56,238 bases of DNA from Candidatus Aminicenantes bacterium. GTDB taxonomy: Bacteria > Acidobacteriota > Aminicenantia > Aminicenantales > Aminicenantaceae. Below the pieces are notes generated by a model. It did not search any database. It was not told the DNA's origin and saw only the letters and a program-made list of their open reading frames with translations. Position 1 is the first letter of the stretch; every line of letters begins with the position of its first letter. This document shows positions 1,819 through 40,689 of the stretch, in pieces. Both the position numbers and the translations under genes were made by a program. The stretch lies in assembly GCA_030669305.1 (NCBI GenBank), contig DAOVDU010000003.1, positions 1 through 56,238 of the forward strand, read 5' to 3'.

Positions 1819-2841
1819 TTATTTATTCCTATCAAGAATAAATTCAGATAATAAGAATAAAGCATTACGGTGGGAAGATTTTGGGAGTTGATTGATAATT
1901 TCTTTAGATTTGAGGGAAAATTCCTTGGCTTTCTTATATGTGTAATCCAGGGCTCCGTTGGACTTAATGATGTCGAGAATTTCTTCTTTATAATTTTTCT
2001 CTAGATTTTTCTTTCTTAACAAATTTGTAATACGATTTCGATTTGCCTTTCCATCATTATTGAGTGTGTATATCAAAGGCAGTGTGATGCGGCCTTCATT
2101 CAAGTCAGAGAGGACAGGTTTCCCCAGGGTTTTTTCATCGCCTGTATAGTCAAGAAGGTCATCAATAATCTGAAAAGACATTCCTAAATTCGTACCAAAT
2201 TCCGCTAAAAAATCTTCTTCCTTTTTTGGTGCATTTCCGAGGATTCCCCCGATCCGGCAAGAAGCGGAGAAAAGAGCGGCAGTCTTTTTATTGATGATGT
2301 CTAGATAATCTTTTTCCTTAATATCCAGATTTCCACTGATGTAATATTCGTTCAGTTCTCCTTCGATCATTTTAGATGAAACATCGGTGAGGATTTGTGT
2401 TATCTCTCTATGTTTACTCTGGAGAGATAAGCCAAAAGTTTTTATATAAAGATAATCTCCTAAGAGAACAGTAACGTTTGGGCCCCACTTGGCATGAACG
2501 GATTCCCTCCCTCTTCTTACATCTGAGTTATCAATTATGTCATCATGGATGAGGCTTGCAGTATGAATAGTCTCAACTAATGTGGACATCAAGATGTGCT
2601 CTTTTCCTTTATAGCCAAATAATTTTGTACAAAGCAAAAGAAGAGCAGGCCTAATTCTTTTGCCTGCTTTTTGAAAGAGATAGGTGCTTATTTCAGATAT
2701 GAGTTTATTTGAGGAATGAGAGAAAAGTTTAAGCTCTTCTTCAACCTCGTCCAGATCTTTTTGAATATCTAAATACAAATTTTTTAAGGAGAGATCCTGC
2801 TTCATTTTAGCTTTGATATATTCTTTAGTGGATCTTTTCAT
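1819..2841 (-). CDS. Long-chain polyprenyl diphosphate synthase (IspB/HepT family)
   Basis: GKRIRP, first DDxxD (HDDIID...RRG), KTA, second DDxxD (IDDLLD), GKP..SDL.EG..TLP. Confidence 0.95.
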   Translation of the reverse strand: MKRSTKEYIKAKMKQDLSLKNLYLDIQKDLDEVEEELKLFSHSSNKLISEISTYLFQKAGKRIRPALLLLCTKLFGYKGKEHILMSTLVETIHTASLIHDDIIDNSDVRRGRESVHAKWGPNVTVLLGDYLYIKTFGLSLQSKHREITQILTDVSSKMIEGELNEYYISGNLDIKEKDYLDIINKKTAALFSASCRIGGILGNAPKKEEDFLAEFGTNLGMSFQIIDDLLDYTGDEKTLGKPVLSDLNEGRITLPLIYTLNNDGKANRNRITNLLRKKNLEKNYKEEILDIIKSNGALDYTYKKAKEFSLKSKEIINQLPKSSHRNALFLLSEFILDRNK

Positions 2842-5770: not shown

Positions 5771-6772
5771 TTACCACCTGATGACTACTGAAGCCCATGT
5801 GTATCCAGATCCAAAAGAAGTAAGGACGATTATATCGCCCTCTTTTATTTTTCCCTGTTTTATAGTTTCGTCCAGCGCTATAGGAATTGAGGCAGCTGTT
5901 GTGTTCCCAAAGCGGTCAATGTTTCTTATAACTTTTTCGACCGGAATTCTTAGATTCCTTGCGACCATCAGGCTGATCCTGTCATTAGCTTGGTGGGGAA
6001 TGAGGTGGTCTACATCTTCTATTGTGAGGCCGTTATGATTTAACGCGGTTCTTACGGCTTCTGGCATCTTTTGAACTGCGTTTATAAAAACGTTTCGGCC
6101 GTTCATACGGGGAAAAAATCTATTGTTTTCAAAATATTCTTTAGTGAATGTTGGTTTATCTTTTGAGCTTGGTTTTTCCATCCATAGATCAGATGCATAC
6201 CTCCCGTCTGAAAATAGATGTGTAGAGAGGATGCCTTTTTCATCGTTTTTTTCATTGGCCTCTAGGATAACTGCGCCACCTCCATCTCCAAAAAGCACAG
6301 CAATATCTCTACCTTCATCGGAGTAATCCATATTTGACGATTGAACCTCAGCGGCGACAATAAGAATTTTCTTGAAAGTTTGAGTCTTGATGTACTGGTC
6401 GGCAACAGAAAGGGCATAGATAAATCCACTGCACTGATTCCTCACATCCAGGGCTCCAATGTTGGAAAGACCTAATTTAGCCTGAACAAGGACACCAATT
6501 CCGGGAAAATAATGGTCTGGAGAAAGTGTTGCGGCGATGATGAAGTCGATTTCTGATTTGTCGATTTTGGCATCATCGATAGCTAGCAAAGCAGCTTTAT
6601 AGGCCAAATCAGAAGTTCCAATCCCTTTTTCAGCATAGTGCCTTTCCGAAATTCCTGACCTCTGGCGAATCCATTCATCAGAGGTGTTCATTATTTTCTC
6701 TAGATCGAAATTTGTAACAGTTTTAGGAGGGACGAACTGACCTGTTCCGGTTATAATTGATCTTATTTTCAT
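5771..6772 (-). CDS. fabH: 3-oxoacyl-ACP synthase III family (FabH)
   Basis: Likely start MKIRSIITGTG at 6772; catalytic Cys (NQCSGF), His (PHQAN), Asn (FGNTTAASIP); SFGSG. Confidence 0.93.
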   Translation of the reverse strand: MKIRSIITGTGQFVPPKTVTNFDLEKIMNTSDEWIRQRSGISERHYAEKGIGTSDLAYKAALLAIDDAKIDKSEIDFIIAATLSPDHYFPGIGVLVQAKLGLSNIGALDVRNQCSGFIYALSVADQYIKTQTFKKILIVAAEVQSSNMDYSDEGRDIAVLFGDGGGAVILEANEKNDEKGILSTHLFSDGRYASDLWMEKPSSKDKPTFTKEYFENNRFFPRMNGRNVFINAVQKMPEAVRTALNHNGLTIEDVDHLIPHQANDRISLMVARNLRIPVEKVIRNIDRFGNTTAASIPIALDETIKQGKIKEGDIIVLTSFGSGYTWASVVIRW

Positions 6773-6857: not shown

Positions 6858-7367
6858 ATGTTACAGAAGGAAGACGTAGGAGTTTTTTTGAAAAGATATA
6901 TTCTCCTTACTATTATGGTTGTTTTGCTTTCCTTTTTCCTTTTCCCTGAAGAAGAGGACATCTTGAAGATTGAAGCTTCTATAAGTCCAAAAAGACTTTC
7001 CAGAGGCCAAGAGGGAAAGGTTATAATAAATCTTACACTTAAAGATAATATCACAATCATTCCTCAACCTTCTTTTATCATCGAATTTAGTCCTTCTGAG
7101 GAACTTATTTTCCCGAAAAATTTTTTTACAGCCTCTGATTTAGAGATAGAAATTTTGGAGGAAAACGGAAAGGAGTACTTGAATCTAAAAGATCCGATTG
7201 AAATTCCATTTACTGTTAATTTAGAAGCAAAGCGAGGCGATCATACTCTTGAGGGAAAGATTAAATATTTTGCATGCTCTAGCAAAGAGGGGTGGTGTCT
7301 GAAGAATACTTCAAAATTTTCAGCCTCTTTCTATACCCGAAGCACTGTATTTAAGAAGAAGAGATAA
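6858..7367 (+). CDS. Exported stand-alone DsbD N-terminal (Ig-like) domain protein
   Basis: N-terminal hydrophobic segment; C-terminal IKYFACSSKEGWCL matches the DsbD-alpha Cys pair pattern. Confidence 0.6.
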   Translation: MLQKEDVGVFLKRYILLTIMVVLLSFFLFPEEEDILKIEASISPKRLSRGQEGKVIINLTLKDNITIIPQPSFIIEFSPSEELIFPKNFFTASDLEIEILEENGKEYLNLKDPIEIPFTVNLEAKRGDHTLEGKIKYFACSSKEGWCLKNTSKFSASFYTRSTVFKKKR

Positions 7368-7757: not shown

Positions 7758-8732
7758 TTAAAGCCATCCGTGTTTGAAGTACCAATCTGTAGTTTCTTGG
7801 ATCGCTTCCTGGAGGGTAAATTGGGGAAAAAAAGAAAGCTTCTCCTGAGCTTTCTTTACATCTGCGATCCAGAATCTCTCTTTCATTTCTTTGTATTTAT
7901 GACGATTGAGAGCGCTCGGTTTCTTGGTAATTTTGCTTCCTAATTCAGAAATTAAAACAATAAGATAAACAATCGGGAGGGGAAAATTCACCCTTTTTAA
8001 GGTTTTCCCCATCGCCTGTCCTGCTGCTTTTCCTAATTCGTCCCAGCTGTAAGGTTTAGGGTTAGCGATATTGATTATTTCTCCGCTTTTTAGATCTTTT
8101 TTTGTACAGAGATCCATGACTTTTATAAGATCTTTGACATAGCATAGGCTATACAGCCTTTGCTTGGAGCCTATACGGGGAAGGATTCCTTTTTTTATGA
8201 ATCTGAAAAAGGATAGAAAGTCTTCATCCCGTGGGCCAAAGACAGAACTAGCCCTTAGTATGACAATCGAAAACTTGTTTATGAATTTTAAAGCCTCGGT
8301 TTCTCCCAATAGTTTACTCTTTCCATATGGTGTAACGGGATGAGGGAGGTCGTTTTCTTTGATTGGCTTTCCCTCAGAGGAAGGGCCTACAGCTGCGAGG
8401 CTGCTAAGGCAAATAATTTTTTTTGGATAGATCTTTTGAGAATCAAAAGATTGAAAAAGGCTTGCTGTTCCTTGTTGGTTTACTGTATAATAATCAGCCG
8501 ATTTATTTGATTTAGTAGAGCCTGCAATGTGGAAGACGTAGTCAATATCTTTAGGAAGAGAAGGGATAGAGAAAATATCTCCTTTTAAAAAATGTATATT
8601 GAGTCCTTTTAGCCATTTTAAATTATTGAGGTCTCGAACAAGGGCATATATATTAATATCTTTATGATTCATCAAATAATTGATAAGATGACTTCCGATA
8701 AATCCGGTTCCGCCAGTGACAAAGGCTTTCAT
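7758..8732 (-). CDS. Extended SDR / NAD-dependent epimerase-dehydratase family oxidoreductase
   Basis: Likely start MKAFVTGGTGFIG; HIAG, N..GT, SSLAA, YGKSK (YxxxK), VFGP. Confidence 0.9.
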   Translation of the reverse strand: MKAFVTGGTGFIGSHLINYLMNHKDINIYALVRDLNNLKWLKGLNIHFLKGDIFSIPSLPKDIDYVFHIAGSTKSNKSADYYTVNQQGTASLFQSFDSQKIYPKKIICLSSLAAVGPSSEGKPIKENDLPHPVTPYGKSKLLGETEALKFINKFSIVILRASSVFGPRDEDFLSFFRFIKKGILPRIGSKQRLYSLCYVKDLIKVMDLCTKKDLKSGEIINIANPKPYSWDELGKAAGQAMGKTLKRVNFPLPIVYLIVLISELGSKITKKPSALNRHKYKEMKERFWIADVKKAQEKLSFFPQFTLQEAIQETTDWYFKHGWL

Positions 8733-8850
8733 TTGTAGAATTGTATGAAAATTGCCTGCTACGGTCAAACCTAAATCGTTTCAGGAAGTTTTAAATTGAC
8801 ATGGTATTTTGTTAAACTTTTTATGAGATTATGCCTAGAAAGGAGGAATT

Positions 8851-10035
8851 GTGAGTATTTTCAATAAATGTTACAACTTCATCCGAGCTGAAGAAGCCAT
8901 AGAATTAGACATGTATCCTTATTTCACTCCTATCCAAGAGGTTAATGGAAATATAGTAAAAGTTAACGGCAAAGAGATGATAATGGTTGGATCTAACAAC
9001 TATTTAGGGCTTGTCAATCATCCCAAGGTGATGAAAGCAGCACAGGAGGCTGTTGACAGATATGGAGTTGCTACTTGTGGTTCAAGGTTTTTGAACGGAA
9101 CTCTGGATATTCATGTTGAGCTGGAAAGGAGATTAGGCAAATTTATGAAAAAAGAAGCAGCTCTTGCTTTCAGCACGGGATTCCAGACGAATCAGGGGAT
9201 AATATCAACAATCGTAGGAAGAGGAGATGCGATTATTACTGACAGGATGGTTCATGCAAGCATTGTGGATGCATCCCGTCTTTCTTATGGGAATATCTTT
9301 AAATTTAAACATAATGATATGGCTGACCTAGAGAGGATACTTTCCTCCATAGACGTAAATGATTCAAAATTGATTGTTGTTGATGGCGTCTTCAGTATGG
9401 AGGGAGACCTTGCAAATTTGCCAGAAATTGTTAAGTTGGCCAAGAAATATAAAGCGCAACTTATGGTTGATGATGCTCATGGAATAGGAGTTATGGGAGA
9501 AAATGGGAGAGGAACTTGTGAGCATTTTAATGTTGAGGATGATGTTGATTTGGTCATGGGCACATTCAGTAAATCTTTTGCTTCGTTGGGCGGGTTTGTA
9601 GCCGGGGAGAAGAAAGTCATTTCTTACATCAAACATCATGCGCGGGCCTTAATTTTTAGCGCCAGCACAACGCCTGCCTCTGTGGCTACAGTCTTGGCTT
9701 CGCTTGATGTCTTTGAAACAGAGCCAGAGAGAAGAGAAAAGCTTTGGCAGATTACAAAAAAAATGAAATCCGGATTTCAGACCATGGGTTATGACACAGG
9801 GCCGACAGAGACGCCAATTATTCCAGTCATCATTGGAAATGATGAGCTGGCTATTATGTTATGGAGATTACTAAGGGAGAATGGCATTTTTACAAATCCT
9901 GTGATTTATCCTGCTGTTCCCCATGGCCAGTCTCTTATCAGGACAAGCTATTCTGCCACGCATACAGATGAAGAATTGGGTACCGTTCTTAGCAGCTTTG
10001 AGGAATGTGGAAAGAGTCTGGGGATTATTAAATAG
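8851..10035 (+). CDS. PLP-dependent alpha-oxoamine synthase, most like serine palmitoyltransferase
   Basis: YPYF N-terminus, GSNNYLGL, CGSRFLNGT, FSTGF, HASI.D, DGVFSMEGD, VDDAHG, PLP Lys in GTFSKS. GTG start after AGGAGG. Confidence 0.8.
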   Translation: MSIFNKCYNFIRAEEAIELDMYPYFTPIQEVNGNIVKVNGKEMIMVGSNNYLGLVNHPKVMKAAQEAVDRYGVATCGSRFLNGTLDIHVELERRLGKFMKKEAALAFSTGFQTNQGIISTIVGRGDAIITDRMVHASIVDASRLSYGNIFKFKHNDMADLERILSSIDVNDSKLIVVDGVFSMEGDLANLPEIVKLAKKYKAQLMVDDAHGIGVMGENGRGTCEHFNVEDDVDLVMGTFSKSFASLGGFVAGEKKVISYIKHHARALIFSASTTPASVATVLASLDVFETEPERREKLWQITKKMKSGFQTMGYDTGPTETPIIPVIIGNDELAIMLWRLLRENGIFTNPVIYPAVPHGQSLIRTSYSATHTDEELGTVLSSFEECGKSLGIIK

Positions 10036-10052
10036 ATGAATGTGATTTAATT

Positions 10053-11861
10053 ATGAAAAAAAAGGTTGGACAATTTTTTTTGATATTACTCTTGACTTTC
10101 ACATTCGGTTTGAATGTTGAAGGCTCTTTGTCGATTCTTCCTGTAAGCCAGATTAAAGCCGGGATGAAAGGCAAAGGGAAATCTGTTTTTATGGGTGGTA
10201 AGATCGAAGAATTCGATGTTGAAATTCTGGGGGTTCTGCATAATTTTCAACCTAAAAGAAACTTGATATTGGCAAAACTTAAAAATAGCATATTGGATGA
10301 AGCGGGTGTTATCCAGGGCATGAGTGGAAGCCCGGTTTATGTGGATGGCAAGCTCATCGGGGCTGTTGCCTATAGCTATGGAACTTTTACCAAAGAGGCC
10401 ATTGCAGGTATTACTCCCATAGCTGAGATGCTGGCTATTTCAGAGGGAGACACTTCGAAGTCTTCCTTTTCTCCACGAATTCCAATAAAAAAGCACCTTA
10501 CATTGGAAGAGCTCTTTGAAATAAACAAGGAATTTTTTCAAGCTAGATCGTCAGGTGCCGCTGAAGGGCAAATCTTTAAACCCCTAAGCATACCTCTCGT
10601 TTTTAGTGGTTTTTCTTCCCCGGTGTTTGAAAAGGCAAAGACTTTTTTTTCGAAGCTGGGATTTATTCCTTTAAGAGCAGGCTCTTCTGCTCAGTCTCTA
10701 GATGAGGTTTCGCCTCCTGATATGACGCTTCAAGAAGGGGCCCCGGTTGGTGTTCAACTTATAAGTGGCGATATGAATATGTCTGCCGTGGGAACAGTGA
10801 CCTATGTTGACGGCAGCAGAATTCTTGCCTTTGGCCACCCTCTATATAATTTAGGTGCGGTTGATTATGCCATGACCAAGGCAAAGGTTATAGCCGTTAT
10901 TCCCAGTCTTTCTACTTCCGTCAGGGTTGCCGTTACAGATATCATAGTCGGGAGGTTTTCTCAAGATCGAACCTCAGGTGTACTTGGTGAGCTTGGAAAG
11001 ATGCCTCAGTTCATTCCTATCAATTTCAAGATGTTAAACGCCAAAGGCAAAATAAGGGATTTTAAAGTAAAAATCTCCAATGATAAAATTTTGACTCCAG
11101 CTCTTGTTAATCTTGCTGTGACAAATATCATGTCAGTTGAAGAGAGGTCTTATGGCGACCTTACAATCGAACTGAATGGAAATGTTTATTTAGACAACGG
11201 CATGAGTATTCATCTCGAAGACCTTTTTTCTGGGACTTTTGATTTCTCCATCGTAAACCTTTCAAGCCTTGTTTCAGCAGTTGTTTTTTTCTTGACTAAC
11301 AATGAATTTGAAGAGTTGGCCATTCATCGCATTGACCTGAATTTACGCGTAGCTGAAGAGGTTCGATTTTCCTATCTCGAAAAGGTTTGGCTTGACAAGT
11401 ATGATGTTTCTCCTGGTGAGAGGATTCAGATAAAGATTTATTCCAGGAATTTCAGAGGGGAAAGCATGCTCAAGGAAGTAAGCCTTGCCGCTCCCCATCT
11501 TCAGTCTGGCTCTGAATTCTATATTGTCATTGGTGATGCTGCCTCCATACATCAGATAGAAATGAGCCAATATCGAACTAAGGCTTTTGTTCCACGTAGC
11601 TTAAACCAACTGGTAAGGATATTAAGCAGCCTCAGGAAAAATAATCGCATTTATTTTAAAATACTCGCTGCCAAGCCAGGCCTATTTCTTAAAGGTGAAG
11701 AAATGCCAAACTTACCCCCGACCATGAAATCCATGTTTTCTTCTCCTCGAGCAGCTTCATCTGCCCCCACTGAACTCATTAGATCTACCCTAGGTGAATA
11801 TCAACTCCCTATTAATTATGTTTTCAAAGGAGCAGCGTTGATTCCCATTAAGATTAAATGA
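10053..11861 (+). CDS. Secreted SpoIVB-like (peptidase S55) serine protease
   Basis: Signal peptide; IQGMSGSPVYVDGKLIGAV (Ser motif); GTVTY...AFGHP (His motif). Confidence 0.85.
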   Translation: MKKKVGQFFLILLLTFTFGLNVEGSLSILPVSQIKAGMKGKGKSVFMGGKIEEFDVEILGVLHNFQPKRNLILAKLKNSILDEAGVIQGMSGSPVYVDGKLIGAVAYSYGTFTKEAIAGITPIAEMLAISEGDTSKSSFSPRIPIKKHLTLEELFEINKEFFQARSSGAAEGQIFKPLSIPLVFSGFSSPVFEKAKTFFSKLGFIPLRAGSSAQSLDEVSPPDMTLQEGAPVGVQLISGDMNMSAVGTVTYVDGSRILAFGHPLYNLGAVDYAMTKAKVIAVIPSLSTSVRVAVTDIIVGRFSQDRTSGVLGELGKMPQFIPINFKMLNAKGKIRDFKVKISNDKILTPALVNLAVTNIMSVEERSYGDLTIELNGNVYLDNGMSIHLEDLFSGTFDFSIVNLSSLVSAVVFFLTNNEFEELAIHRIDLNLRVAEEVRFSYLEKVWLDKYDVSPGERIQIKIYSRNFRGESMLKEVSLAAPHLQSGSEFYIVIGDAASIHQIEMSQYRTKAFVPRSLNQLVRILSSLRKNNRIYFKILAAKPGLFLKGEEMPNLPPTMKSMFSSPRAASSAPTELIRSTLGEYQLPINYVFKGAALIPIKIK

Positions 11862-11886
11862 ATAAGAAGTTCGAATCTAATAGGAG

Positions 11887-14052
11887 ATGGAAAGGATGAA
11901 AAAGACTTTGATTGTTGGTTTTACTGCTATGTTCTTTTTGGTGCAAGCGCTCCAAGGAGTTATCCCACAAAAGTGGGAGCATCGGAGATTAGAGGATTTT
12001 CTAAAGGGCAAGTTTGATGGAATATCTGTCTCCTTTGATGGTATTCTTTCTCTTTCTCCTAAGGAAGATAAAATAGAGGGGCCTGGGGAGGAGTTTTACT
12101 TGTCTCTTCTTCTTACGGAAAAAGAAGTGGCCTATCTTGGAACAGGACATGGAGGAAAAATATACAGAATTGATAAAGACGGCAAAGTCGAACTTTACTG
12201 CCAGGTGCCTGAGATGGATATCTACTGTCTTGCCCAGGATAGAAAAGGAAATCTTTATGCAGGAACTTCACCAAACGGCAAAATTTATAAAATCACAGCA
12301 AAAGGAGAACGTGCTGTTTTTTTTAACCCCCAGGAAAAATACATCTGGGATTTGTTGTTTACAGAAAAAGGATTTTTGCTGGCTGCGGTCGGTGAAAAGG
12401 GGGGAATTTATGAAATAAATAGCCAAGGTGAAGGTAGGTTAATACTGAAAGCAGAGGAAAATCATATCCTCTGTCTGAAGAATGATAGAAACGGGGATTT
12501 GATTGCTGGCAGCGGGGGAAAAGGAGCCCTTTATCGTATTAAGCCTGGGAAAAAAGTTTCAATCCTGTTTGAGTCTCCTTTCGAGGAGATAAAGAGCGTT
12601 GCTATAGACAGGGAAGGAAATATCTATGCTGCAGCCGGAGGAAGTGTTACCAGGCCAAGGAAAGAGGAAGCAATCCCAGTTTCTACTAAAGAAGATACAG
12701 ATATAACCATCACGGTCACCCCTTCTTCTGTCCAATCCAAAGGAGTTACAAGTATGAATCAGAAGCAGCCAGGGGCCCTTTACAGAGTAAATCCTGATGG
12801 TATAGCAAAAAGGCTTTGGTATTCCAGCGAGGAATTAATCTATACTTTGCTCTGGAATGAGAGAGAGGAAAGAATTATTTTCGGTACTGGAAATAAAGGG
12901 CGAATTTATACTATAGATAAAAATGAAAAAACATCGCTCCTTCTTCAGAAAAATTCTGAACAGGTTTATCTCCTCCTTCCTTCTAACTCAAAAATATACA
13001 CTTTATCAAACAATCCATCCAGCATGAGTCTTCTTTTTCCTGAGCAAAGATTCAAAGGAGAGTATTTCAGTCAGGTTCTGGATGCGAAAATCATTTCGTC
13101 ATGGGGAAGAATAAAATGGCAAGCAGAGCTTCCTCCTGGCTCGAGGCTCCAATTCCAGACGAGAAGTGGAAATACTGATAAAGTAGATAAGACTTGGAGC
13201 GAATGGTCTCCTCCTTATAAAAATATACAAGGCGAACAGATTTTAAGCCCTAAGGCCCGCTATGTCCAGTATAAAGCCATCTTTCAGATTCAGTCTGGCA
13301 ATATATCTCCTTATCTTCATGAAGTTTTTCTTTTCTATCTTCAAACAAATCTTGCTCCAGAAATAACTAAGTTAGATTTGCTTCCTTCGAACGAAGTGTA
13401 TCTAAAACCGCCTGAACAAGGTGAAATAATATGGGGAATAAATTCGGATTTATCCGAGCAAGCTAAAAGCAAGGATAAAACCTTGAGTTATATTGTAGCA
13501 AAGAAAGCCAAAAGAAAAGGATTCCAGACTATTATCTGGGCAGCGGCTGATGAGAATGGAGATAACCTTCTGTATTCAATCTATATAAAAAAAGAGGATG
13601 AGAACAAATGGAGAGTTTTCATGGAGAGATGCGCAGATAAAATCTTTGCCTTTGATACTTTGTCTTTTCCTGATGGGATCTATTATGTGAAGGTCGTGGC
13701 TTCTGATGCACCTTCTAATCCCCTTGGAATGGAGTTAAAAGCTGATAAAATCAGCCGGCCGATGATTATTGATAATTCTCTTCCTGTAATTAAATATTTC
13801 CGAGCAGCAAAAGATAGAAATAAGCTTAATGTAACCTTTTTGGCTGAAGATTCGATGACTTACATCAAGGAAGTCAAATTTCTCATCCGGCCGAATGAAT
13901 GGCAAAATATTTTTCCTGAGGATGGGATTTGTGACTCAAAGCAAGAGAAATTCAATGTAACTGTGACTTTATCCCCTAACTCTGACAACCTTATTGCTGT
14001 CAAAGTTCTAGACAGCCATGGCAATGTAGGTGTCTACAGAACCACGTTTTAA
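11887..14052 (+). CDS. Secreted beta-propeller protein with C-terminal beta-sandwich/FnIII-like domains
   Basis: Signal peptide; ~40-aa blades (YLGTGHGGKIYRI, LYAGTSPNGKIYKI, LIAGSGGKGALYRI, IFGTGNKGRIYTI); C-terminal DENGDNLLYSIY and PDGIYYVKVVASD. Confidence 0.75.
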   Translation: MERMKKTLIVGFTAMFFLVQALQGVIPQKWEHRRLEDFLKGKFDGISVSFDGILSLSPKEDKIEGPGEEFYLSLLLTEKEVAYLGTGHGGKIYRIDKDGKVELYCQVPEMDIYCLAQDRKGNLYAGTSPNGKIYKITAKGERAVFFNPQEKYIWDLLFTEKGFLLAAVGEKGGIYEINSQGEGRLILKAEENHILCLKNDRNGDLIAGSGGKGALYRIKPGKKVSILFESPFEEIKSVAIDREGNIYAAAGGSVTRPRKEEAIPVSTKEDTDITITVTPSSVQSKGVTSMNQKQPGALYRVNPDGIAKRLWYSSEELIYTLLWNEREERIIFGTGNKGRIYTIDKNEKTSLLLQKNSEQVYLLLPSNSKIYTLSNNPSSMSLLFPEQRFKGEYFSQVLDAKIISSWGRIKWQAELPPGSRLQFQTRSGNTDKVDKTWSEWSPPYKNIQGEQILSPKARYVQYKAIFQIQSGNISPYLHEVFLFYLQTNLAPEITKLDLLPSNEVYLKPPEQGEIIWGINSDLSEQAKSKDKTLSYIVAKKAKRKGFQTIIWAAADENGDNLLYSIYIKKEDENKWRVFMERCADKIFAFDTLSFPDGIYYVKVVASDAPSNPLGMELKADKISRPMIIDNSLPVIKYFRAAKDRNKLNVTFLAEDSMTYIKEVKFLIRPNEWQNIFPEDGICDSKQEKFNVTVTLSPNSDNLIAVKVLDSHGNVGVYRTTF

Positions 14053-15078: not shown

Positions 15079-16170
15079 TTATCCTGTCTCCATTTCTTCT
15101 AATCGGACTCCCTCGTCGACTTGGATTATAAAGACTTTTGCGCCAATTTTTTTTATGGCTTCGGCAGTCTCCTCTGCTCTTCCAGGAGCATAAGCGAATA
15201 TACATCCTCCCGCTCCAGAGCCGTTTATTTTTGCCCCTAGAGCTCCGACTTTTAGAGCAGCTTCTATCATTTTTTCGATTTTTGGCGTGGAGGTATGAAG
15301 ATAGTCCCTGAGAACTTGTTGCTGTCGGGAAAGAAGTTTTCCAAACTGTTTATGGTCAAATTCCTCTGATTCGAAAAGTACTTTTCCTTCTGAGGTTATG
15401 TCACGTGTAAAGAGAGTGCCTTTTAAGAGCCTCTTTACATCAGGAGAAAGTTTTTCTATTTCCTCAAGTTCTTTCTGGCCAAGGGGAGTTTTTAAACTGA
15501 AACCTTCTATTTTTTTCTGGATGATGGTTAGTCCTTGAAGAACATGATTCTTGATATACCCAAGCATTCCGGTTGTGTCTTTTTTCTGAAGAGAATCGGC
15601 CAGAACAAATTCTTTGAGTGGATTTTTTAGTTTCTTGACTTTTAAAGTTTTATCAAAATGGACAGAAATTATGCCTCCCAGGGAGGATGCATAGTGATCC
15701 ATCTTGCCTCCTGGCTCATGAAACTCTGCCACTTCTGCCTGAAAGCCTAGTTCTGCAATTGTCTCTTGATTTTTGGCGCTCTCATCTTTGGCTGCCTCAA
15801 GTAGGAATTTTAACCAGGCAACGACAAGAGCCGATGAACTGGCAGTGCCAGAATTGATAGGAATTGAACCTTGAATGAGGCAGTCCCATCCTGATGGGAT
15901 AAGAATCCCTTTTCTTTTGAGAATATTGATGGTGCTTTTAAGGTAATCCCTTTCTTGGCCATAAACCAGCTTTTTGTCCAGGTTAAATTCTTCCTCTTCT
16001 CCTATATCCGGAAGGCTGAGCTGGAATATTTTATCTCTTCTTTTTTTTCCTTTGATGAATATCCTCAGATTTATTGCGGCAGCAATAATTGGCAAGCCGA
16101 AATAGTCTTGATGTTCGCCAAAAAGGCATATTCTCCCTGGAGCGGAAACACTAATTTCATCATTTCTCAT
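15079..16170 (-). CDS. GHMP-family sugar kinase (galactokinase-like)
   Basis: PGRICLFGEHQDY, PINSGTASSSA, GKMDHY, GAKINGSGAGG. Confidence 0.88.
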   Translation of the reverse strand: MRNDEISVSAPGRICLFGEHQDYFGLPIIAAAINLRIFIKGKKRRDKIFQLSLPDIGEEEEFNLDKKLVYGQERDYLKSTINILKRKGILIPSGWDCLIQGSIPINSGTASSSALVVAWLKFLLEAAKDESAKNQETIAELGFQAEVAEFHEPGGKMDHYASSLGGIISVHFDKTLKVKKLKNPLKEFVLADSLQKKDTTGMLGYIKNHVLQGLTIIQKKIEGFSLKTPLGQKELEEIEKLSPDVKRLLKGTLFTRDITSEGKVLFESEEFDHKQFGKLLSRQQQVLRDYLHTSTPKIEKMIEAALKVGALGAKINGSGAGGCIFAYAPGRAEETAEAIKKIGAKVFIIQVDEGVRLEEMETG

Positions 16171-21796: not shown

Positions 21797-22246
21797 ATGG
21801 AAAATTTAAGCGAATTCGAAGCAAATCAAAAAGATCTTATTCATATTCTTCATAAAATCCAGGCAGAATATGGTTACATTCCTTCCCAGGCTTTATCTTC
21901 AATCTCAAAGCATTTGAAAATTTCTGAAAGTGAAATCTTCGGAGTGCTTACTTTTTATAAAGCCTTTAGTCTCAAGCCTCGTGGGAAACACCTCGTCACC
22001 ATATGTACGGGAACAGCCTGTCATGTTAGAGGGGCTCCGATGATTTTGGATGAATTGAAAAGGCAGTTAAGCATCGAGCCAGGAGAAACGACAGAGGATG
22101 ATTTGTTTACGTTAGAAACTGTCAATTGTGTAGGTGCGTGTGCTTTAGGTCCTATTGTTATTTCTGATGGCGATTATCACGGTCAGATGAATACAAGAGA
22201 AGTCAATAAATTGATTAAAAAAATAAAAAAAGAAATCAAGGAATAG
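21797..22246 (+). CDS. NuoE/HydC-like [2Fe-2S] subunit (BfuC)
   Basis: TFY..F, ICTGTACHVRG, TVNCVGACALGP. Confidence 0.92.
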   Translation: MENLSEFEANQKDLIHILHKIQAEYGYIPSQALSSISKHLKISESEIFGVLTFYKAFSLKPRGKHLVTICTGTACHVRGAPMILDELKRQLSIEPGETTEDDLFTLETVNCVGACALGPIVISDGDYHGQMNTREVNKLIKKIKKEIKE

Positions 22247-22255
22247 TATTGAATA

Positions 22256-24169
22256 ATGGATAAGATCAGCATCACAAGGTTAGAGGAAATAAAAACTGAA
22301 GTTGCAGAGTCCAGAAAGAAGCAAAAAACCTGCATTACTATCTGCGGAGGAACTGGATGTCATGCCTATGGATGCTTAGAAATAGCTCAAGCTTTTAAGA
22401 ATGCAATAAAGAAACAAAGACTGCAAAACCAGGTAAATGTAAGAACTACAGGGTGCCATGGATTTTGTGAGAGAGGGCCTATTGTTGTCATTCAACCTGC
22501 GGGAATTTTTTACCAAAGGGTTAAGCTTGATGATATAAATGAAATAATTTCTGAAACCATAATTAATAAAAAAGTCTTAGACAGGCTTCTTTATGTTGAT
22601 CCCAGAACAGGTGAGAGAATAGTTGAAGAAAAGGAAGTTCCTTTTTATAAAAAGCAAAAGCGCATAATTTTTGGGAATAACGGATTCATAGATCCCACAG
22701 ATGTCAAAGATTATATTGCCCTGGATGGTTATAAAGCTCTTACGAAAGTCCTCTTTAATTATACTTCAGAAGAGGTCATCAGCGAGATTAAGACATCCGG
22801 TCTTAGGGGAAGAGGAGGAGCGGGATTTCTTACTGGGATTAAGTGGGAAATTTGCCGCCAAAGTCTGGCTGATGTGAAATATGTCATCTGTAATGCAGAT
22901 GAGGGAGATCCAGGTGCCTACATGGACCGGAGTTTGTTAGAAGGTAATCCGCACAGCGTTATTGAGGGCATGATCATAGGGGCTTATGCCATTGGTGCAT
23001 CAGAGGGATATATTTATGTTCGTATGGAATATCCTCTTGCCGTTAAGAATATAACAGTAGCCTTAAAACAAGCCAGAAATCTTGGGCTGCTGGGTGAATT
23101 TATCCTCGGGTCTGAATTCAGCTTTGATATTAATATCTTCAGAGGAGCTGGGGCATTCGTTTCAGGAGAAGAGACTTCTTTGATGGCTTCCATAGAAGGT
23201 CGGCGTGCTTTCCCAAGACAGCGACCTCCTTTTCCTGCTCAAAAAGGATTATGGGGAAAGCCAACCAATATCAACAATGTGGAAACCTGGGCTAATGTTC
23301 CTTTGATTCTTAACAAAGGGGCTGACTGGTATTCTCAGATAGGCACAAAAAAGAGTAAGGGGACAAAAATATTTTCTCTTGTTGGGAAGATAAACAATAC
23401 TGGTTTGGTTGAAGTACCCATGGGAATTACACTGAGAGAGATTGTCTATGATATCGGTGGCGGCATAAAAGAAAACAAAAAGTTCAAAGCTGTACAGACA
23501 GGAGGCCCTTCAGGAGGCTGTATTCCTGCGGAGATGCTTGATTTAAGTATTGACTTTGATACCCTCACGAAAGTTGGGTCAATGATGGGCTCTGGCGGGA
23601 TGATTGTCATGGATGAAGATACATGTATGGTTGATATTGCTCGGTATTTTCTTGAATTTACCCAGGAAGAATCCTGCGGGAAGTGTGTTCCTTGTCGTAT
23701 TGGAACTAGACAGTTGGTAGAAATTTTAACGCGCATCACTCAGGGCAAAGGGGAAGAAGGAGATGTTAAAAAGCTCTTAGATTTGGCAAAGATTATAAAG
23801 GAAGGTTCGCTCTGTGGATTAGGTCAGACTGCTCCCAATCCCGTACTTACAACCATTAAGCATTTTCGAGATGAGTACGAAGCTCACATCATAGAAAAAA
23901 GTTGTCCGGCACTTTCCTGTAAAGACCTGATTGTCTATTACATAGAACCAAAAAAGTGCGTTGGATGTCTTTTATGTTTAAAGAGTTGCCCTGTAAGCGC
24001 TATTAAGGGGGAGAGGAAGATGGTGCATGTGATTGATCAAGATCTATGCATTAAGTGTGGTGCTTGCCTTGATGTGTGCCCTCCAAAGGTAGGGGCTGTC
24101 TCTAAATATACGGGTAAGAAGAGAGATAGAATTTTGAAAAAAGCTTCTTCGATAAGAGATAGAAAATGA
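22256..24169 (+). CDS. NuoF/HydB-like FMN/NAD(H) subunit of bifurcating type (BfuB)
   Basis: N-terminal CGGTGC...GCHGFC [2Fe-2S]; SGLRGRGGAGF, NADEGDPG, GEET; SCGKCVPCR..CGLG; H..EKSCPALSC; two C-terminal CxxCxxCxxxCP ferredoxin motifs. Confidence 0.92.
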   Translation: MDKISITRLEEIKTEVAESRKKQKTCITICGGTGCHAYGCLEIAQAFKNAIKKQRLQNQVNVRTTGCHGFCERGPIVVIQPAGIFYQRVKLDDINEIISETIINKKVLDRLLYVDPRTGERIVEEKEVPFYKKQKRIIFGNNGFIDPTDVKDYIALDGYKALTKVLFNYTSEEVISEIKTSGLRGRGGAGFLTGIKWEICRQSLADVKYVICNADEGDPGAYMDRSLLEGNPHSVIEGMIIGAYAIGASEGYIYVRMEYPLAVKNITVALKQARNLGLLGEFILGSEFSFDINIFRGAGAFVSGEETSLMASIEGRRAFPRQRPPFPAQKGLWGKPTNINNVETWANVPLILNKGADWYSQIGTKKSKGTKIFSLVGKINNTGLVEVPMGITLREIVYDIGGGIKENKKFKAVQTGGPSGGCIPAEMLDLSIDFDTLTKVGSMMGSGGMIVMDEDTCMVDIARYFLEFTQEESCGKCVPCRIGTRQLVEILTRITQGKGEEGDVKKLLDLAKIIKEGSLCGLGQTAPNPVLTTIKHFRDEYEAHIIEKSCPALSCKDLIVYYIEPKKCVGCLLCLKSCPVSAIKGERKMVHVIDQDLCIKCGACLDVCPPKVGAVSKYTGKKRDRILKKASSIRDRK

Positions 24170-26730
24170 TAATTTTCATCGATGGGAAAAAATTTGGAAT
24201 CGAGAGCAAAAAGACAATTTTGGAAGCTGCTCGGGAAAACGAAATCTATATCCCTTCACTTTGTGATCATTCTCGCTTGAGTCCTTTCAGTGGCTGCCGG
24301 CTTTGTATCGTCGAAATCAAAGGACGCAGAGGATATGTTCCCTCATGTAGCACTTATGTTGAAGAAGGAATGGATGTGAAGACAGATTCTCCCCGGCTAA
24401 GAAAAATGAGAAAACAGATTTTAGAGCTCATCCTTTCTGAACATCCGAATGCCTGTCTTATTTGTAGTGAGAAAGAAAATTGCGATGAATATAAGTCAAC
24501 AATCAGGAAGGTCGGCGAAGTTACAGGATGCGTGCTTTGTCCAAACAACGGCCGCTGTGAACTTCAGGATGTCGTAAAAGCTTTGAAAATTGATAAAGTA
24601 AGGTTTCCGTCTGTTTATAGAAATTATGAAGTTAAGAAGAATGATCCTTTTTTTGATCGAAACTACAATTTATGCATCCTGTGCGGAAGATGTGTTAGGG
24701 TTTGTCATGATTTAAGGGGATCATCAGCTGTTTCCTTTGTTTTTAGAGGTTCTAAAGCAGGAATAGGGACAGTATTTGATCAGACACTTCTTGAGGCAGG
24801 CTGTCAGTTCTGCGGTGCTTGTGTTGACGTGTGTCCAACAGGAGCTTTAACTGAAAGAGCCCTTAAGTATGAGACATTGCCTGATGAAACGAGAAAAACC
24901 ATTTGTCCCTTCTGTAGTATTGGCTGTGAGCTTAAAATGGAACTCAAGGAGGGCAGAATATTAAACTCTGCCCCTTCCGAAGATGGGCCTGTAAATCAAG
25001 GGCAGGCTTGTGTCAAGGGACGATTCACGATAAAGGATGCTGTCTATAGCTCCCAAAGAATTCTCAAGCCCATGATCCGAAAAAATAAAGAGCTTGAAGA
25101 GGTAAGCTGGGAAGAAGCTTTGGATTTTGTTGCCAAGAAGCTCAAAAAATATAAAGGGAAAGAGATTGGATTGATTGCTTCTCCTCAAGTCTCTAACGAA
25201 GACAATTTTCTTATTCATAAATTTGCGGAATATGTGTTGAAAACAGAAAATATTGACAGTGTTGTCCGGTTTTCATCTTACGCAGTTTTTCAGGATTTGG
25301 CTCAAAAAAATGGTTTCGAGCTCAATTTGAATTTTAAAATTGAGGATATCTCCAAGGCAAAGACCATATTCCTTCTTGGAGCCGATATCGTTGTTACTCA
25401 TCCAATAATTTGGCTCGAGGTTTTAAGAGCAGTTAATAACGGAGCTAAGCTCATTGTCGCGAGCTCAGTCGATTTTTTCCTTAACCGCTTTTCTTCGCTT
25501 TGGCTTAAGATGAAACCTGGATCTGAATACTTTTTGCTTAGTTTTCTCTCTAAAGTTATTATCGACAAAAGCAAAGTCGAAAATCTGGCCCAGATTGAAG
25601 GTTTTAAAAATCTCAAAAGCTCTCTGGATGAACTCGATTTATCTCAGGCCATTGAAAAAACTGACATTGAAGAGGAAAATATAAAGAAAGCAGCCGAGAT
25701 TCTTATTAAGGAGACGCCGTCGGTTTTTATATTTGGAATGGAGTTGACTCAGCTTCCGTGGGGAAGCCAAAATTTGGCTGGCCTCTGGAATTTATCTCTT
25801 CAGACCCAGGGTCAGCTTGTTCCTCTTGGCTTAGAAACTAATCTAAGAGGTCTTTTTGAGCTGAATCGCCATTGTTCTAGTAACACAAAAGGTTTTAAGC
25901 GAATCATCCAGGATGCTGAAGAAGGAAAAGTTAAAGCCCTTTACCTGGCAAGCCCAATTCCCTATTCCCAGAAAGCGAAGTTTGAATTTTTAGTTATTCA
26001 AGACAGCTTTATGAGTGAAAACATGAAAAAGGCTGATGCTGTTTTACCTGCCGCAAGTTTTGCAGAAATAGAAGGGACCTTTGTCAATGTTGAAGGAAGG
26101 ATTCAGAAATTTAATAAAGTCATTGAACCTCTCGGGGAAGCAAAACCTGATTGGTGGATAATCTCTCAATTAGCACAAAAGATGGGACATAACGAGTTAA
26201 ACTACAATGCCTCTTCAGAAATTTCTAAAGAGATGATTAAAAATATTCCTGGTTTTTCAGGTATATCGTTCCAAAAGTTGAAGAAAGGTGAGAGACTTTT
26301 TATTCAGGAGGAGAAGAAAGGAAAAAAGAAATTTGTACCAATAAAATTCTTTTCCACATCCATTGAAACCAGCAAAGAATATCCGTTTCTTATGCTTGTG
26401 GATTACAATTTAGATTACTACAAAAATCTTGATTTGAGTCAGGAAATCAAAGCCTTTGGAATAATCAGAAATTCAAGATGGTTTAAAATAAATCCAAATG
26501 ATGCAAAAAAAACAAAGCTGAAAGATGGAGAAACCATGGAGGTTGAATCCTCGAAGGGAAAAGTCAAGGGAATTGTTAAAGTTTTAGAATCAGTGCCCAG
26601 AGGAACAATAGTAGCCAGCTTCCTCTGGAATGAAGAAGAAACAATTTCTGTGGCGCGACTTGTCTCTCCTTTGTCTAATGCATCGCATTCTTTAGTATTA
26701 CTGCCCGTAAAAATTAAAAGAGGAAAATAA
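24166..26730 (+). CDS. NuoG/FdhA-like subunit (BfuA): Fe-S relay plus molybdopterin-oxidoreductase-fold domain lacking the metal ligand
   Basis: IPSLC...CRLC...SC, HxxxCxxC, CILCGRCVRVC, CQFCGACVDVCP, CPFCSIGC...CVKG, ADAVLPAA...E.EGTFVNVEGRIQ. Confidence 0.85.
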   Translation: MIIFIDGKKFGIESKKTILEAARENEIYIPSLCDHSRLSPFSGCRLCIVEIKGRRGYVPSCSTYVEEGMDVKTDSPRLRKMRKQILELILSEHPNACLICSEKENCDEYKSTIRKVGEVTGCVLCPNNGRCELQDVVKALKIDKVRFPSVYRNYEVKKNDPFFDRNYNLCILCGRCVRVCHDLRGSSAVSFVFRGSKAGIGTVFDQTLLEAGCQFCGACVDVCPTGALTERALKYETLPDETRKTICPFCSIGCELKMELKEGRILNSAPSEDGPVNQGQACVKGRFTIKDAVYSSQRILKPMIRKNKELEEVSWEEALDFVAKKLKKYKGKEIGLIASPQVSNEDNFLIHKFAEYVLKTENIDSVVRFSSYAVFQDLAQKNGFELNLNFKIEDISKAKTIFLLGADIVVTHPIIWLEVLRAVNNGAKLIVASSVDFFLNRFSSLWLKMKPGSEYFLLSFLSKVIIDKSKVENLAQIEGFKNLKSSLDELDLSQAIEKTDIEEENIKKAAEILIKETPSVFIFGMELTQLPWGSQNLAGLWNLSLQTQGQLVPLGLETNLRGLFELNRHCSSNTKGFKRIIQDAEEGKVKALYLASPIPYSQKAKFEFLVIQDSFMSENMKKADAVLPAASFAEIEGTFVNVEGRIQKFNKVIEPLGEAKPDWWIISQLAQKMGHNELNYNASSEISKEMIKNIPGFSGISFQKLKKGERLFIQEEKKGKKKFVPIKFFSTSIETSKEYPFLMLVDYNLDYYKNLDLSQEIKAFGIIRNSRWFKINPNDAKKTKLKDGETMEVESSKGKVKGIVKVLESVPRGTIVASFLWNEEETISVARLVSPLSNASHSLVLLPVKIKRGK

Positions 26731-27563
26731 TGGCAAAGATTTTGCAGAGAAAACGCTTAGTCCCAAATATTCATCTTCTGGAGGTACATGCTCCTGAGGT
26801 TGCCCAAAAATGTAAACCAGGTCAGTTTGTCATTATCATGCCTGACGAGCGTGGAGAAAGAATTCCATTAACCATAGGGGACTGGGATGAGAAAAAAGGT
26901 TCTGTTACTTCGGTGTTTCTTGTGGTTGGGACTTCAACCCACAAACTCTCGATGCTCGAAGCAGGAGATGAAGTACCTGTCTTTGTCGGGCCTTTAGGCA
27001 AGCCTTCTGAAATAGAAAAATACGGAACAGTCCTTTGTGCTGGAGGCTGTTTTGGTATTGCGGCCATTTATCCCATTGCCCGTGCTCTAAAAGAAGCAGG
27101 GAACAAGATTATCACTCTCTTGGATGTTAAAGCCAATTACCTAATTTATTGGGAAGATAAGTTAAAAGCTGTAAGCGATCAATTTTTTATTTCAGCTCGG
27201 GACAGCTATTACGACTGTAAGGAATACATCCCAAACACACTCGAGAAAATAGTGAAAAAGGAAAAGAAAATCGACCGTGTTGTTTCTATAGGGTGTACTT
27301 ATTTGATGTATACCTGTTCGGAAGCCACAAAACCTTATGGAATAAAGACAGTAGTCAGCCTCAATCCTATCATGGTGGATGGAACCGGGATGTGTGGAGC
27401 ATGCCGTGTAACCATTGACGGAAAGACGAAATTTGCCTGTGTGGACGGGCCAGATTTTGACGGCCATTTAGTCGACTGGGATGAGCTTTTTTCGAGAAGG
27501 AAGTCCTATTTTGAAGATGAAATTCAGTCTTTATGTTACTGGGAAAAGGAAACCTTTCCTTAA
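26730..27563 (+). CDS. nfnA: NfnA/SudB-like FAD/[2Fe-2S] subunit
   Basis: PGQFVI...GERIPLTI, VGPLGKP, SLNPIMVDGTGMCGACRV...FACVDGPDFD. Confidence 0.88.
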   Translation: MAKILQRKRLVPNIHLLEVHAPEVAQKCKPGQFVIIMPDERGERIPLTIGDWDEKKGSVTSVFLVVGTSTHKLSMLEAGDEVPVFVGPLGKPSEIEKYGTVLCAGGCFGIAAIYPIARALKEAGNKIITLLDVKANYLIYWEDKLKAVSDQFFISARDSYYDCKEYIPNTLEKIVKKEKKIDRVVSIGCTYLMYTCSEATKPYGIKTVVSLNPIMVDGTGMCGACRVTIDGKTKFACVDGPDFDGHLVDWDELFSRRKSYFEDEIQSLCYWEKETFP

Positions 27564-27593
27564 AAGCTTAAGACATGAAAGAGTAGAGAAAAC

Positions 27594-35712: not shown

Positions 35713-36294
35713 ATGAAAAGGAGAATGGATATGAAAAAAATATTAATTTCAGCCTTTATTTTGGTATTTTCCCTTGTGTTTGTTTCTAGTGCATATGGAC
35801 AGGGAGGCTTTTATCTTGGTCTTCAGGGAGGATTATCTGCTCAGAAACCCAGCCTCACCGATATCGAGTTCAATACCAATACAACCTTTCTTTATGGGGC
35901 TCGAGCCGGAATAAAATTCATGATGCTTGCTCTTGAAGTAAACTACTTCCAGGCCGCCCACGACATTGACCTCAAAGAGTTCCCGACTTTTGATTGGGCA
36001 GATCGCGAAATTGATTACAATTACTTAGGTTTAAACTTGAAGTATTTTTTTCCTCTCTCTTTCTTGAATCCTTATATCACTGCAGGTTATGGCTACTATA
36101 CAGCAAGCATTCGTAATATCGATAAAGATACGGATCGAGGATTCAATTTTGGACTGGGGTTAGAATTACATTTAGGGAAAAAGTTTTCTCTTCTGGCTGA
36201 AGGAAAATATCATCATGTCAAACTTGATATTGAAGAAAGAGATTTGAAGATTGGTGATTTTACCTTCAGCGGCGGGTTTAATATTTATTTTTAA
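35713..36294 (+). CDS. Outer-membrane beta-barrel (OmpA-like transmembrane domain) protein
   Basis: Signal peptide, alternating amphipathic strands (PYITAGYGY, GFNFGLGLEL, LLAEGKYH), terminal Phe (FNIYF). Confidence 0.8.
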   Translation: MKRRMDMKKILISAFILVFSLVFVSSAYGQGGFYLGLQGGLSAQKPSLTDIEFNTNTTFLYGARAGIKFMMLALEVNYFQAAHDIDLKEFPTFDWADREIDYNYLGLNLKYFFPLSFLNPYITAGYGYYTASIRNIDKDTDRGFNFGLGLELHLGKKFSLLAEGKYHHVKLDIEERDLKIGDFTFSGGFNIYF

Positions 36295-36307
36295 TATTAT
36301 TATACAA

Positions 36308-36380
36308 AAAACGTAAAACGACAAACGCAAAACGATTATCTAATATTTTTTTTATACTTCTTACGTTTTACGTTTGACGT
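36308..36380. repeat. Inverted AAACGTA/TTTACGT heptamer arrays
   Basis: AAAACGTAAAACGACAAACGCAAAACG ... CTTACGTTTTACGTTTGACGT. Confidence 0.7.
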
Positions 36381-36418
36381 CTTGCGGAATCAGGTTTAAC
36401 ATTTGGATTTTTATAACA

Positions 36419-37525: not shown

Positions 37526-37527
37526 AA

Positions 37528-38253: not shown

Positions 38254-38276
38254 AAGTCATCTCCCTCTTCTCCCAA

Positions 38277-38406
38277 TTAGTTGATGCAAAGGGTTCGAGG
38301 ATTCAAGTGTTTTTTTTGTAGCGATTTAGTAAGTGCTTTGAGCATCCTCTCAACCTCTCCTATTCCCTCCTGTGCAAACTTTTAATTCTTTGTAATTCTT
38401 AAGCAT
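38277..38406 (-). pseudogene. Internally deleted four-helix-bundle (23S rRNA IVS family) gene
   Basis: ATG at 38406 gives MLKNYKELKVC; a shifted frame gives GIGEVERMLKALTKSLQKKHLNP. These match the typical N- and C-termini of this family with the middle missing. Confidence 0.72.
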
Positions 38407-38659
38407 TTCACTCGAATCCCTGACCCCTTGACTCCTTGAATCCTTATGATCCTACCAACTCTTTTGGAGATGATCCATAATTAAATTACCTTTAACTTTC
38501 AACTTTAAACCTTAAACCAAATATGTATTGCCGCCCGATAGGGATTTGTCTTGCTAATTACTTAACGGTCTAAACAGACTAAACGGACCTAACGGACTAA
38601 ACTGATTGAATCATTGACTAAAATATACTGAGATGCAATAATATTTTTTAAGGTGCAAA

Positions 38660-40453: not shown

Positions 40454-40485
40454 TAAGCAGACTGCATTCTTCATTAATAACTCAA

Positions 40486-40680: not shown

Positions 40681-40689
40681 ATTTGTGCT

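Follow-up and report, generated by a model that had tools for sequence, protein, structure and literature searches.

The window analysed here, a stretch of 56,238 nucleotides of contig DAOVDU010000003.1 from Candidatus Aminicenantes bacterium, contains a divergently transcribed pair of genes, one encoding an alpha-oxoamine synthase (AOS) of the serine palmitoyltransferase (SPT or Spt) type and the other an extended short-chain dehydrogenase/reductase (SDR) related to the ceramide reductase CerR. We propose that these proteins catalyse the initial condensation and the keto reduction in a bacterial pathway to sphingoid bases or ceramides, a reading to which we give a probability of about 0.7 on the basis of sequence comparison and gene order. 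The organism, from marine sediment or a cold seep, probably makes sphingolipid-type lipids. A first-pass annotation of the window had proposed such lipids with the SDR as reductase, which fits both the SPT-type AOS and the presence of SDR homologs beside Spt-like genes in many phyla and in sphingomonads. The three-gene ceramide pathway and the occurrence of Spt-like/bCerS/CerR modules in about 40 phyla are already known (Stankeviciute et al. 2022, as cited in PMC11087976; Ding et al. 2024, PMC11334938), and the present context analysis reproduces this pattern independently.

Family assignment of the alpha-oxoamine synthase

The assignment of AOS to the SPT type, and not to BioF or Kbl, is supported by family scores, the ranking of PDB matches, residue comparison and phylogeny, which all agree. 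The top NCBIfam model is NF047600 (SPT-CFB, the equivalog of Bacteroidota SPTs) with 538.2 bits, about 105 bits above the next model. It is followed by TIGR01825 (BioF/Kbl-related, 432 bits), Kbl (408 bits), the beta-proteobacterial SPT (404 bits) and BioF (395 bits). AOS is below the curated cutoff of every model, i.e., 640 for NF047600, 460 and 493 for Kbl (scores of 408 and 330, respectively) and 426 for BioF. The nearest environmental cluster representatives of AOS have the same SPT model as their best one, with 497-625 bits for all the top ones checked. Among PDB entries, the SPT of Sphingobacterium multivorum ranks first (425 bits), followed by Thermus BioF/KBL (328 bits), Sphingomonas SPT (289 bits), Kbl (285 bits) and cysteate-C-fatty acyltransferase (270 bits).

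AOS and the S. multivorum SPT can be aligned without gaps over 374 amino acids, with 50% identity. The lysine that binds pyridoxal 5'-phosphate (PLP) and the catalytic His/Asp/His are conserved, as K241, H135, D207 and H210 of AOS correspond to K244, H138, D210 and H213 of the S. multivorum SPT. Among the residues around PLP and L-serine in the SPT-serine crystal complex (PMC10196870), Asn52, Tyr54, Gly80, Ser81, Phe83, Leu84, Asn85, Phe114, His138, Ser185, Asp210, Ala212, His213, Thr241, Ser243, Lys244, Phe272 and Ala274 are identical in AOS, which exhibits Cys in place of Ala79, Asn in place of Ser53 and Ile in place of Met271. The S. multivorum enzyme (PDB codes 3A2B and 8GUH; NF047600) resembles AOS in its PLP lysine, in His138/Asp210/His213, in the Gly80-Ser81-Arg-Phe-Leu-Asn85 loop, in FSTGF and GTFSKS, and in the YxYF wall of the N-terminal acyl pocket. 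It differs in that the host of AOS is an uncultured lineage related to Acidobacteriota and that the activity of AOS is predicted from sequence.

AOS exhibits the motifs YPYF (residues 22-25), SRFLNGT, FSTGF and GTFSKS, all of which had been listed in the first-pass annotation and are present in the 394-residue open reading frame (ORF). The aligned motifs are YAYF, AGSRFLNGT, FSTGFQSN and GTFSKS in the S. multivorum SPT, NGSRMLNGT, FSTGYMAN and GTFSKS in a sphingomonad Spt, ASVRFICGT, YSSCFDAN and GTLGKA in E. coli Kbl, and GGSGHVSGY, FISGFAAN and VTFGKG in E. coli BioF. The motifs of AOS are thus nearer to those of SPTs than to those of BioF or Kbl, as first suggested, but GTLGKA, which had been given as a BioF motif, belongs to Kbl, the corresponding motif of E. 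coli BioF being VTFGKG.

In a neighbour-joining tree (102 sequences, 392 columns, 100 bootstraps; with Spt, Kbl and BioF as the reference enzymes), the Aminicenantes AOSs form a clade (bootstrap 100) that is sister to the AOSs of two loci named L010 and L014 (99). This group is nested in an 87-member clade with the S. multivorum SPT (80), which joins the sphingomonad Spt (85). Kbl forms its own clade (94) and BioF is the outgroup. Of the enzymes that had been recommended for a phylogenetic check, the tree covers Spt, BioF and Kbl, and it places AOS with Spt.

The SDR and its association with Spt-like genes

The SDR matches the Pfam families Epimerase and 3Beta_HSD. It exhibits a TGGTGFIGS Rossmann motif, LSSLAAVGP, which includes the serine of SSL, and YGKSK, and the catalytic Ser, Tyr and Lys of SDRs are thus present. 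In SDRs, a basic residue after beta-strand 2 points to NADP(H). Since an arginine follows beta-strand 2 in the window SDR, its cofactor is probably NADPH. The protein begins directly with the Rossmann motif and shows no obvious signal peptide; CerR is periplasmic in Caulobacter.

The gene context of AOS was examined in a scan in which every GTDB species was represented by a single genome and an alignment of AOS relatives was the query; it yielded 80 loci from more than 15 phyla. These comprise five Aminicenantes loci (72-80% AOS identity) and 75 others (50-66%), from Zixibacteria, Nitrospirota, Planctomycetota, Gemmatimonadota, Chloroflexota, Bacteroidota, Eisenbacteria, Thermoanaerobaculaceae, Geobacter, Spirochaetes and other groups. 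Co-location was counted in those 57 loci outside Aminicenantes whose flanks were long enough to be informative. A full-length SDR homolog (28-42% identity) is found within 1.5 kb of AOS in 28 of them, and a gene for a GNAT acyltransferase of about 380 residues in 30, usually directly downstream of AOS. Both genes are present at 21 loci, the SDR only at 7, the GNAT only at 9 and neither at 20, the last group coming mostly from Anaerolineae/Chloroflexia, Bacteroidales and Spirochaetes. The position of the SDR homolog varies: it lies upstream of AOS in the same orientation, is transcribed divergently as in the window, or follows the GNAT gene. A phmmer search with the SDR of 8,918 ORFs from 165 loci gave 89 matches (E < 1e-3), all of them located at most 6 kb from AOS/Spt and most within 1.5 kb. 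Genes that repeatedly lie together while their order and orientation change are classically taken to be functionally linked. As the co-location of SDR and AOS recurs, rearranged, across phyla, the two are likely to be functionally linked.

The nearest cluster representatives of AOS (clustered at 50% identity) are 45-58% identical to it and include several natural fusions. Two of these, P0122 and P0132, exhibit a C-terminal GNAT-like domain of about 380 residues, of the bCerS type, behind the AOS part. In P0128, P0137 and P0139, a FemAB-like/Acetyltransf_6 domain is N-terminal to AOS, P0137 exhibiting in addition a C-terminal PilZ domain. This FemAB-like fusion partner may be an alternative N-acyltransferase; as a separate gene, a FemAB-like acyltransferase was observed in none of the fetched loci.

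A second set comprised 80 metagenomic loci around relatives (73-95% identity) of the Sphingomonas paucimobilis SPT. These loci exhibit an SDR of about 300 residues, an acyl carrier protein (ACP; PF00550) and Spt, with a GNAT of the same family (30-40% identity) 4-9 kb downstream. This order matches the published ceramide layout cerR-acpR-spt...cerS (PMC11324152, PMC11087976), from which we infer that the family of GNATs of about 380 residues corresponds to bCerS and the SDR family to CerR.

Profile scores point in the same direction. A hidden Markov model (HMM) for which the 45 sphingomonad SDRs in the cerR position were the sole input gives 115.5 bits for the window SDR (E = 1e-35), 116-144 bits for the other Aminicenantes SDRs and 92-217 bits for the SDRs of other phyla, compared with 5-44 bits for the six outgroups used, all from E. 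coli (GalE, RfbB, HldD, Fcl, Gmd and RfbD; 43.5 bits for GalE). Conversely, an HMM built from the SDRs of other phyla gives 351-371 bits for the Aminicenantes SDRs, 204-253 bits for the sphingomonad SDRs and 112 bits for GalE. The Aminicenantes, other-phyla and sphingomonad SDRs also share motifs that are absent from the E. coli proteins, namely L(V/T)R after beta-strand 2, (L/V)SSLAAxxP, YG(K/R/W)SK, RPPxVYGP(R/G)D and a C-terminal WY(R/K)xxGWL. The assignment of the window SDR to the CerR family appears convincing only when sequence and synteny are combined.

The ceramide cluster of Caulobacter and Sphingomonas comprises spt, acpR, cerR, aasR and cerS/bCerS (PMC11324152, PMC11087976). It likewise exhibits an Spt-type AOS adjoining a CerR-family SDR, and the window SDR has its motifs in common with the sphingomonad SDRs. 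In contrast to the Aminicenantes pair, which is divergent and has no such genes nearby, its genes are co-directional and are accompanied by those for ACP, acyl-ACP synthetase and bCerS. In addition, its SDR is NDUFA9/NmrA-like, whereas that of the window is Epimerase/3beta-HSD-like, and the sphingomonad Spt is 37% identical to AOS. In the clade B loci described by Ding et al. (2024, PMC11334938), Spt-like genes are co-located with bCerS and CerR in metagenome-assembled genomes of about 40 phyla. The loci of other phyla analysed here (L011-L084) reproduce this three-family module, with AOS identities of 50-66% and SDR identities of 28-42%, whereas the Aminicenantes loci, L010 and L014 keep just SDR and AOS at the site. 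The accessible parts of the text and supplements of that paper do not name Aminicenantes. Finally, BT_0972 of Bacteroides thetaiotaomicron is a 3-ketosphinganine reductase, a classical SDR of 31 kDa that is unlinked to spt (PMC9278070). The proposed chemistry is similar, i.e., an NADPH-dependent 3-keto reduction, but the window protein is an extended SDR of 324 residues.

In the proposed pathway, AOS would form an external aldimine between PLP and L-serine, followed by a decarboxylative Claisen condensation with a long-chain acyl thioester (of coenzyme A or ACP) to yield 3-ketodihydrosphingosine, as suggested by its 50% identity to SPT and its conserved residues. The amine might also be N-acylated, before or after the reduction, by an unlinked N-acyltransferase. 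The SDR would reduce the 3-keto group through its Ser-Tyr-Lys triad, probably with NADPH, to yield sphinganine or dihydroceramide, as suggested by its family, its triad and its synteny.

Several observations weigh against this reading. The score of AOS, 538 bits, is under the curated cutoff of the SPT equivalog NF047600 (640), and the internal nodes of the neighbour-joining tree are weak and unresolved within the 87-member clade. The SDR is only 22-28% identical to the sphingomonad SDRs in the cerR position, and the Pfam profiles differ, as the sphingomonad SDRs are NAD_binding_10/NmrA-like. Moreover, the sphingomonad SDR and GNAT were equated with CerR (CCNA_01222) and bCerS (CCNA_01212) of Caulobacter by published gene order, the sphingomonad loci serving as a proxy. 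The pairing of SDR and AOS within Aminicenantes is not independent evidence, because a whole housekeeping region of about 20 kb is collinear in these genomes. Lastly, genes for a bCerS-type GNAT, a FemAB-type acyltransferase, an ACP or an acyl-ACP synthetase are found neither in the 56-kb window nor within 10 kb of the pair in nine other Aminicenantes loci.

The missing acyltransferase and alternative readings

What sets the Aminicenantes lineage apart is that its locus has lost the acyltransferase gene. In the window, no bCerS gene was found by tblastn, and the best match of the bCerS-family HMM in the six-frame translation had an E-value of 1.4, in line with the first-pass annotation, in which no such gene was visible. 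The sister-clade loci L010 and L014 also lack a bCerS-type GNAT, a FemAB-type acyltransferase, an ACP and an acyl-ACP synthetase within 10 kb, whereas the next-closest relatives of AOS (L011, L012 and L013) exhibit a gene for a bCerS-type GNAT directly downstream. As dispersed sphingolipid genes are common, the absence from the locus is no proof of a genome-wide loss, and a bCerS gene is likely to be present elsewhere in the genome.

The strongest alternative, which we nevertheless regard as rather unlikely, is an altered or truncated pathway, in which Aminicenantes and the sister clade would truly be without bCerS. The CerR-type SDR would then reduce 3-ketodihydrosphingosine directly, yielding free or differently modified bases, unless a non-homologous enzyme acts as N-acyltransferase. 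This would account for the consistent presence of SDR and AOS without a GNAT within 10 kb in the window, in the nine other Aminicenantes loci (L001-L009 and L168 being the Aminicenantes loci concerned), in L010 and in L014, while L011, L012 and L013 have one. In a bCerS-family profile search, no named protein among the best 120 of more than 7,900 matches, most of which are nameless, was from Aminicenantes, but the best 120 of thousands of matches cannot show an absence. Furthermore, the sphingomonad GNAT gene is itself 4-9 kb away, the sphingolipid genes of Bacteroidota are unlinked (PMC11334938), and other phyla also exhibit loci with only the SDR or only the GNAT (7 and 9 of the 57, respectively), which weighs against this alternative.

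AOS could also use another amino acid, such as cysteate, glycine or alanine, to give a different amino-lipid base, for instance one of the sulfonolipid type. Several amino acids are known to serve as substrates for AOS enzymes of this clade (PMC10196870), and cysteate acyltransferases are homologous to AOS (270 bits). Nevertheless, the match to SPT is 155 bits above that to cysteate-C-fatty acyltransferase (425 and 270 bits, respectively), the residues contacting the serine hydroxyl and the carboxylate networks are conserved, and no cysteate synthase was seen among the scanned ORFs of the window. A cysteate acyltransferase making sulfonolipids is therefore unlikely, and a substrate other than serine seems improbable in general.

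The weakest alternative, in which AOS would be a Kbl or a BioF that neighbours by chance an unrelated sugar epimerase or an SDR-type threonine dehydrogenase (Tdh), can practically be dismissed: JGI labels the homologs of AOS and SDR as 8-amino-7-oxononanoate synthase and nucleoside-diphosphate-sugar epimerase, Kbl and SDR-type Tdh are known as a gene pair, and the BioF and Kbl models give AOS 395 and 408 bits, respectively, but these scores are under both cutoffs and more than 130 bits below that of SPT-CFB, the Kbl (VRFICGT/GTLGKA) and BioF motifs are absent from AOS, the tree separates AOS from both enzymes, and members of the SDR family accompany Spt-like genes in many phyla. The pair of Kbl and SDR-type Tdh was rejected because the cutoffs and motifs of Kbl are not reached by AOS and the SDR-type Tdh (3A1N) gives only 34.7 bits against the SDR. 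BioF was rejected on score, motifs and tree; no bioA, bioB, bioC or bioD was found among the scanned ORFs. Although E. coli Kbl-Tdh (b3617/b3616) and BioF (b0776) resemble the window proteins in AOS fold and PLP chemistry, with 33-36% identity to AOS, they differ in their substrate-loop motifs and tree clade, and AOS is below their family cutoffs. In the sister-clade locus L010 (9690-12831), the Spt-like gene is followed by a gene for a cNMP-binding/FHA protein and, 900 bp downstream, by a canonical operon of tdh (Zn-dependent alcohol dehydrogenase type) and kbl, so that two AOS paralogs, Spt-like and Kbl, lie less than 3 kb apart.

Layout of the locus and significance for Aminicenantes

The coordinates of the Spt-like/CerR-like pair and of its neighbours are given in Table 1. 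The start codon of AOS is a GTG located 7 nt after an AGGAGG Shine-Dalgarno sequence. The longest reading frame of the SDR spans 7758-8768(-), but its homologs all begin at MKAFVTGGTGFIGS, and the true start is therefore the ATG at 8732. With this start, the spacer between the divergent genes measures 118 bp, as originally described. A -35/-10-like element (TTGACC-17-TACAAT) is located on the minus strand directly upstream of the SDR start; in a promoter/terminator scan, sites were no more frequent than in shuffled sequence. An Rfam scan of the window matched no family.

Table 1 Features of the SDR/AOS locus, with positions counted from the first nucleotide of the window
Feature	Position	Strand	Description and evidence
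Spt-like alpha-oxoamine synthase (AOS)	8851..10035	+	394 aa, PLP-dependent acyltransferase; NCBIfam, PDB match, motifs, tree
CerR-family extended SDR, predicted NADPH-dependent 3-keto reductase	7758..8732	-	324 aa; Pfam Epimerase/3Beta_HSD, profile scores, synteny
Divergent intergenic region	8733..8850	.	118 bp, between the SDR and AOS starts
Predicted secreted protein (orf169), possibly associated	6858..7367	+	169 aa, no family; between fabH and SDR
FabH (KAS III), neighbour	5771..6772	-	PRK09352/TIGR00747 above cutoff (NCBIfam); tie to the SDR/AOS pair unsupported
S55 (SpoIVB-like) peptidase-domain protein, probably co-transcribed with AOS	10053..11861	+	602 aa; Pfam PF05580

The window has a G+C content of about 39%, and its proteins share as much as 99% identity with NCBI proteins of Candidatus Aminicenantes. 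The same DNA is present in marine-sediment, cold-seep and hydrothermal-vent metagenomes. Over about 20 kb, the region is collinear among Aminicenantes and comprises genes for CYTH, polyprenyl synthase, TatD, DUF885, FabH, orf169, SDR, AOS, the S55 peptidase, a propeller protein and EF-P. The collinearity, including the SDR/AOS arrangement, extends to the closed 4.43-Mb Candidatus Aminicenantes genome CP070825.1 (GCA_020344415.1; L168, 232088-253068), and the Aminicenantes AOSs are about 80% identical across more than 100 protein clusters.

The first-pass annotation had drawn attention to a nearby fabH. The gene is indeed present, about 1 kb beyond the SDR, but the link is lineage-specific and adds nothing: FabH homologs are found near AOS only in the Aminicenantes loci and in none of the other 75 loci, and fabH was rejected as a part of the system, having no support beyond these collinear loci. 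Its reading frame of 429 residues is over-extended, since the FabH match begins only at residue 99. The predicted protein orf169 matches no Pfam or NCBIfam family; its gene is kept beside the SDR in all Aminicenantes loci, and a homolog with 31% identity adjoins the SDR in locus L014 of the sister clade. The gene for the S55 peptidase-domain protein is 18 bp 3' of AOS; its peptidase match is short, and it has no known link to lipids. It is followed by a gene for a beta-propeller protein of 721 residues (10053-14052(+) for the region of both genes). These two genes are collinear in every Aminicenantes locus and absent from the loci of other phyla.

In family scans of the ORFs up to about 40.5 kb, the rest of the window exhibits housekeeping genes and nothing related to lipids. 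A polyprenyl diphosphate synthase gene (1819-2841(-)) lies in the same neighbourhood, and a GHMP kinase gene (15079-16170(-)) has mevalonate kinase and galactokinase as best matches, both sub-threshold; no tie to the Spt pair was found for either. A cluster at 21797-29096(+) encodes NuoE-like and NuoF-like proteins and an 854-residue NuoG/formate-dehydrogenase-like subunit; genes for a sulfide-dehydrogenase-like FAD/NAD protein and for an NADPH-dependent GltD-type subunit (NfnAB-like) come next. From these families, the cluster resembles a redox module of the electron-bifurcating or confurcating kind. The cumulative GC skew has its maximum at about 36-38 kb. Long ORFs are mostly on the plus strand from about 16.5 to 40.5 kb, except two at 32.8-35.3 kb, and all on the minus strand from about 40.7 to 56 kb. 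This switch of skew and strand at about 36000-41000 could be a convergence point or simply reflect transcription-linked skew.

Aminicenantes occur widely in anoxic marine sediment, at cold seeps and in the subsurface; to our knowledge, none has been cultured and none of their lipids is known. A literature search found no paper linking Aminicenantes with serine palmitoyltransferase, and the sole paper combining Aminicenantes and sphingolipid was unrelated. Taken alone, the pair mainly extends the published spread of Spt/bCerS/CerR modules, the absence of the acyltransferase from the locus being the sole new twist. If bCerS has truly been lost, a "ceramide reductase" family would act as 3-ketosphinganine reductase in abundant sediment bacteria, which would contain sphingoid bases that are free or modified in unconventional ways, or would carry out N-acylation with a non-homologous enzyme. 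The credible and highly conserved pair of Spt and CerR makes Aminicenantes a candidate origin of the ceramides and sphingoid bases that are used as biomarkers in sediments.

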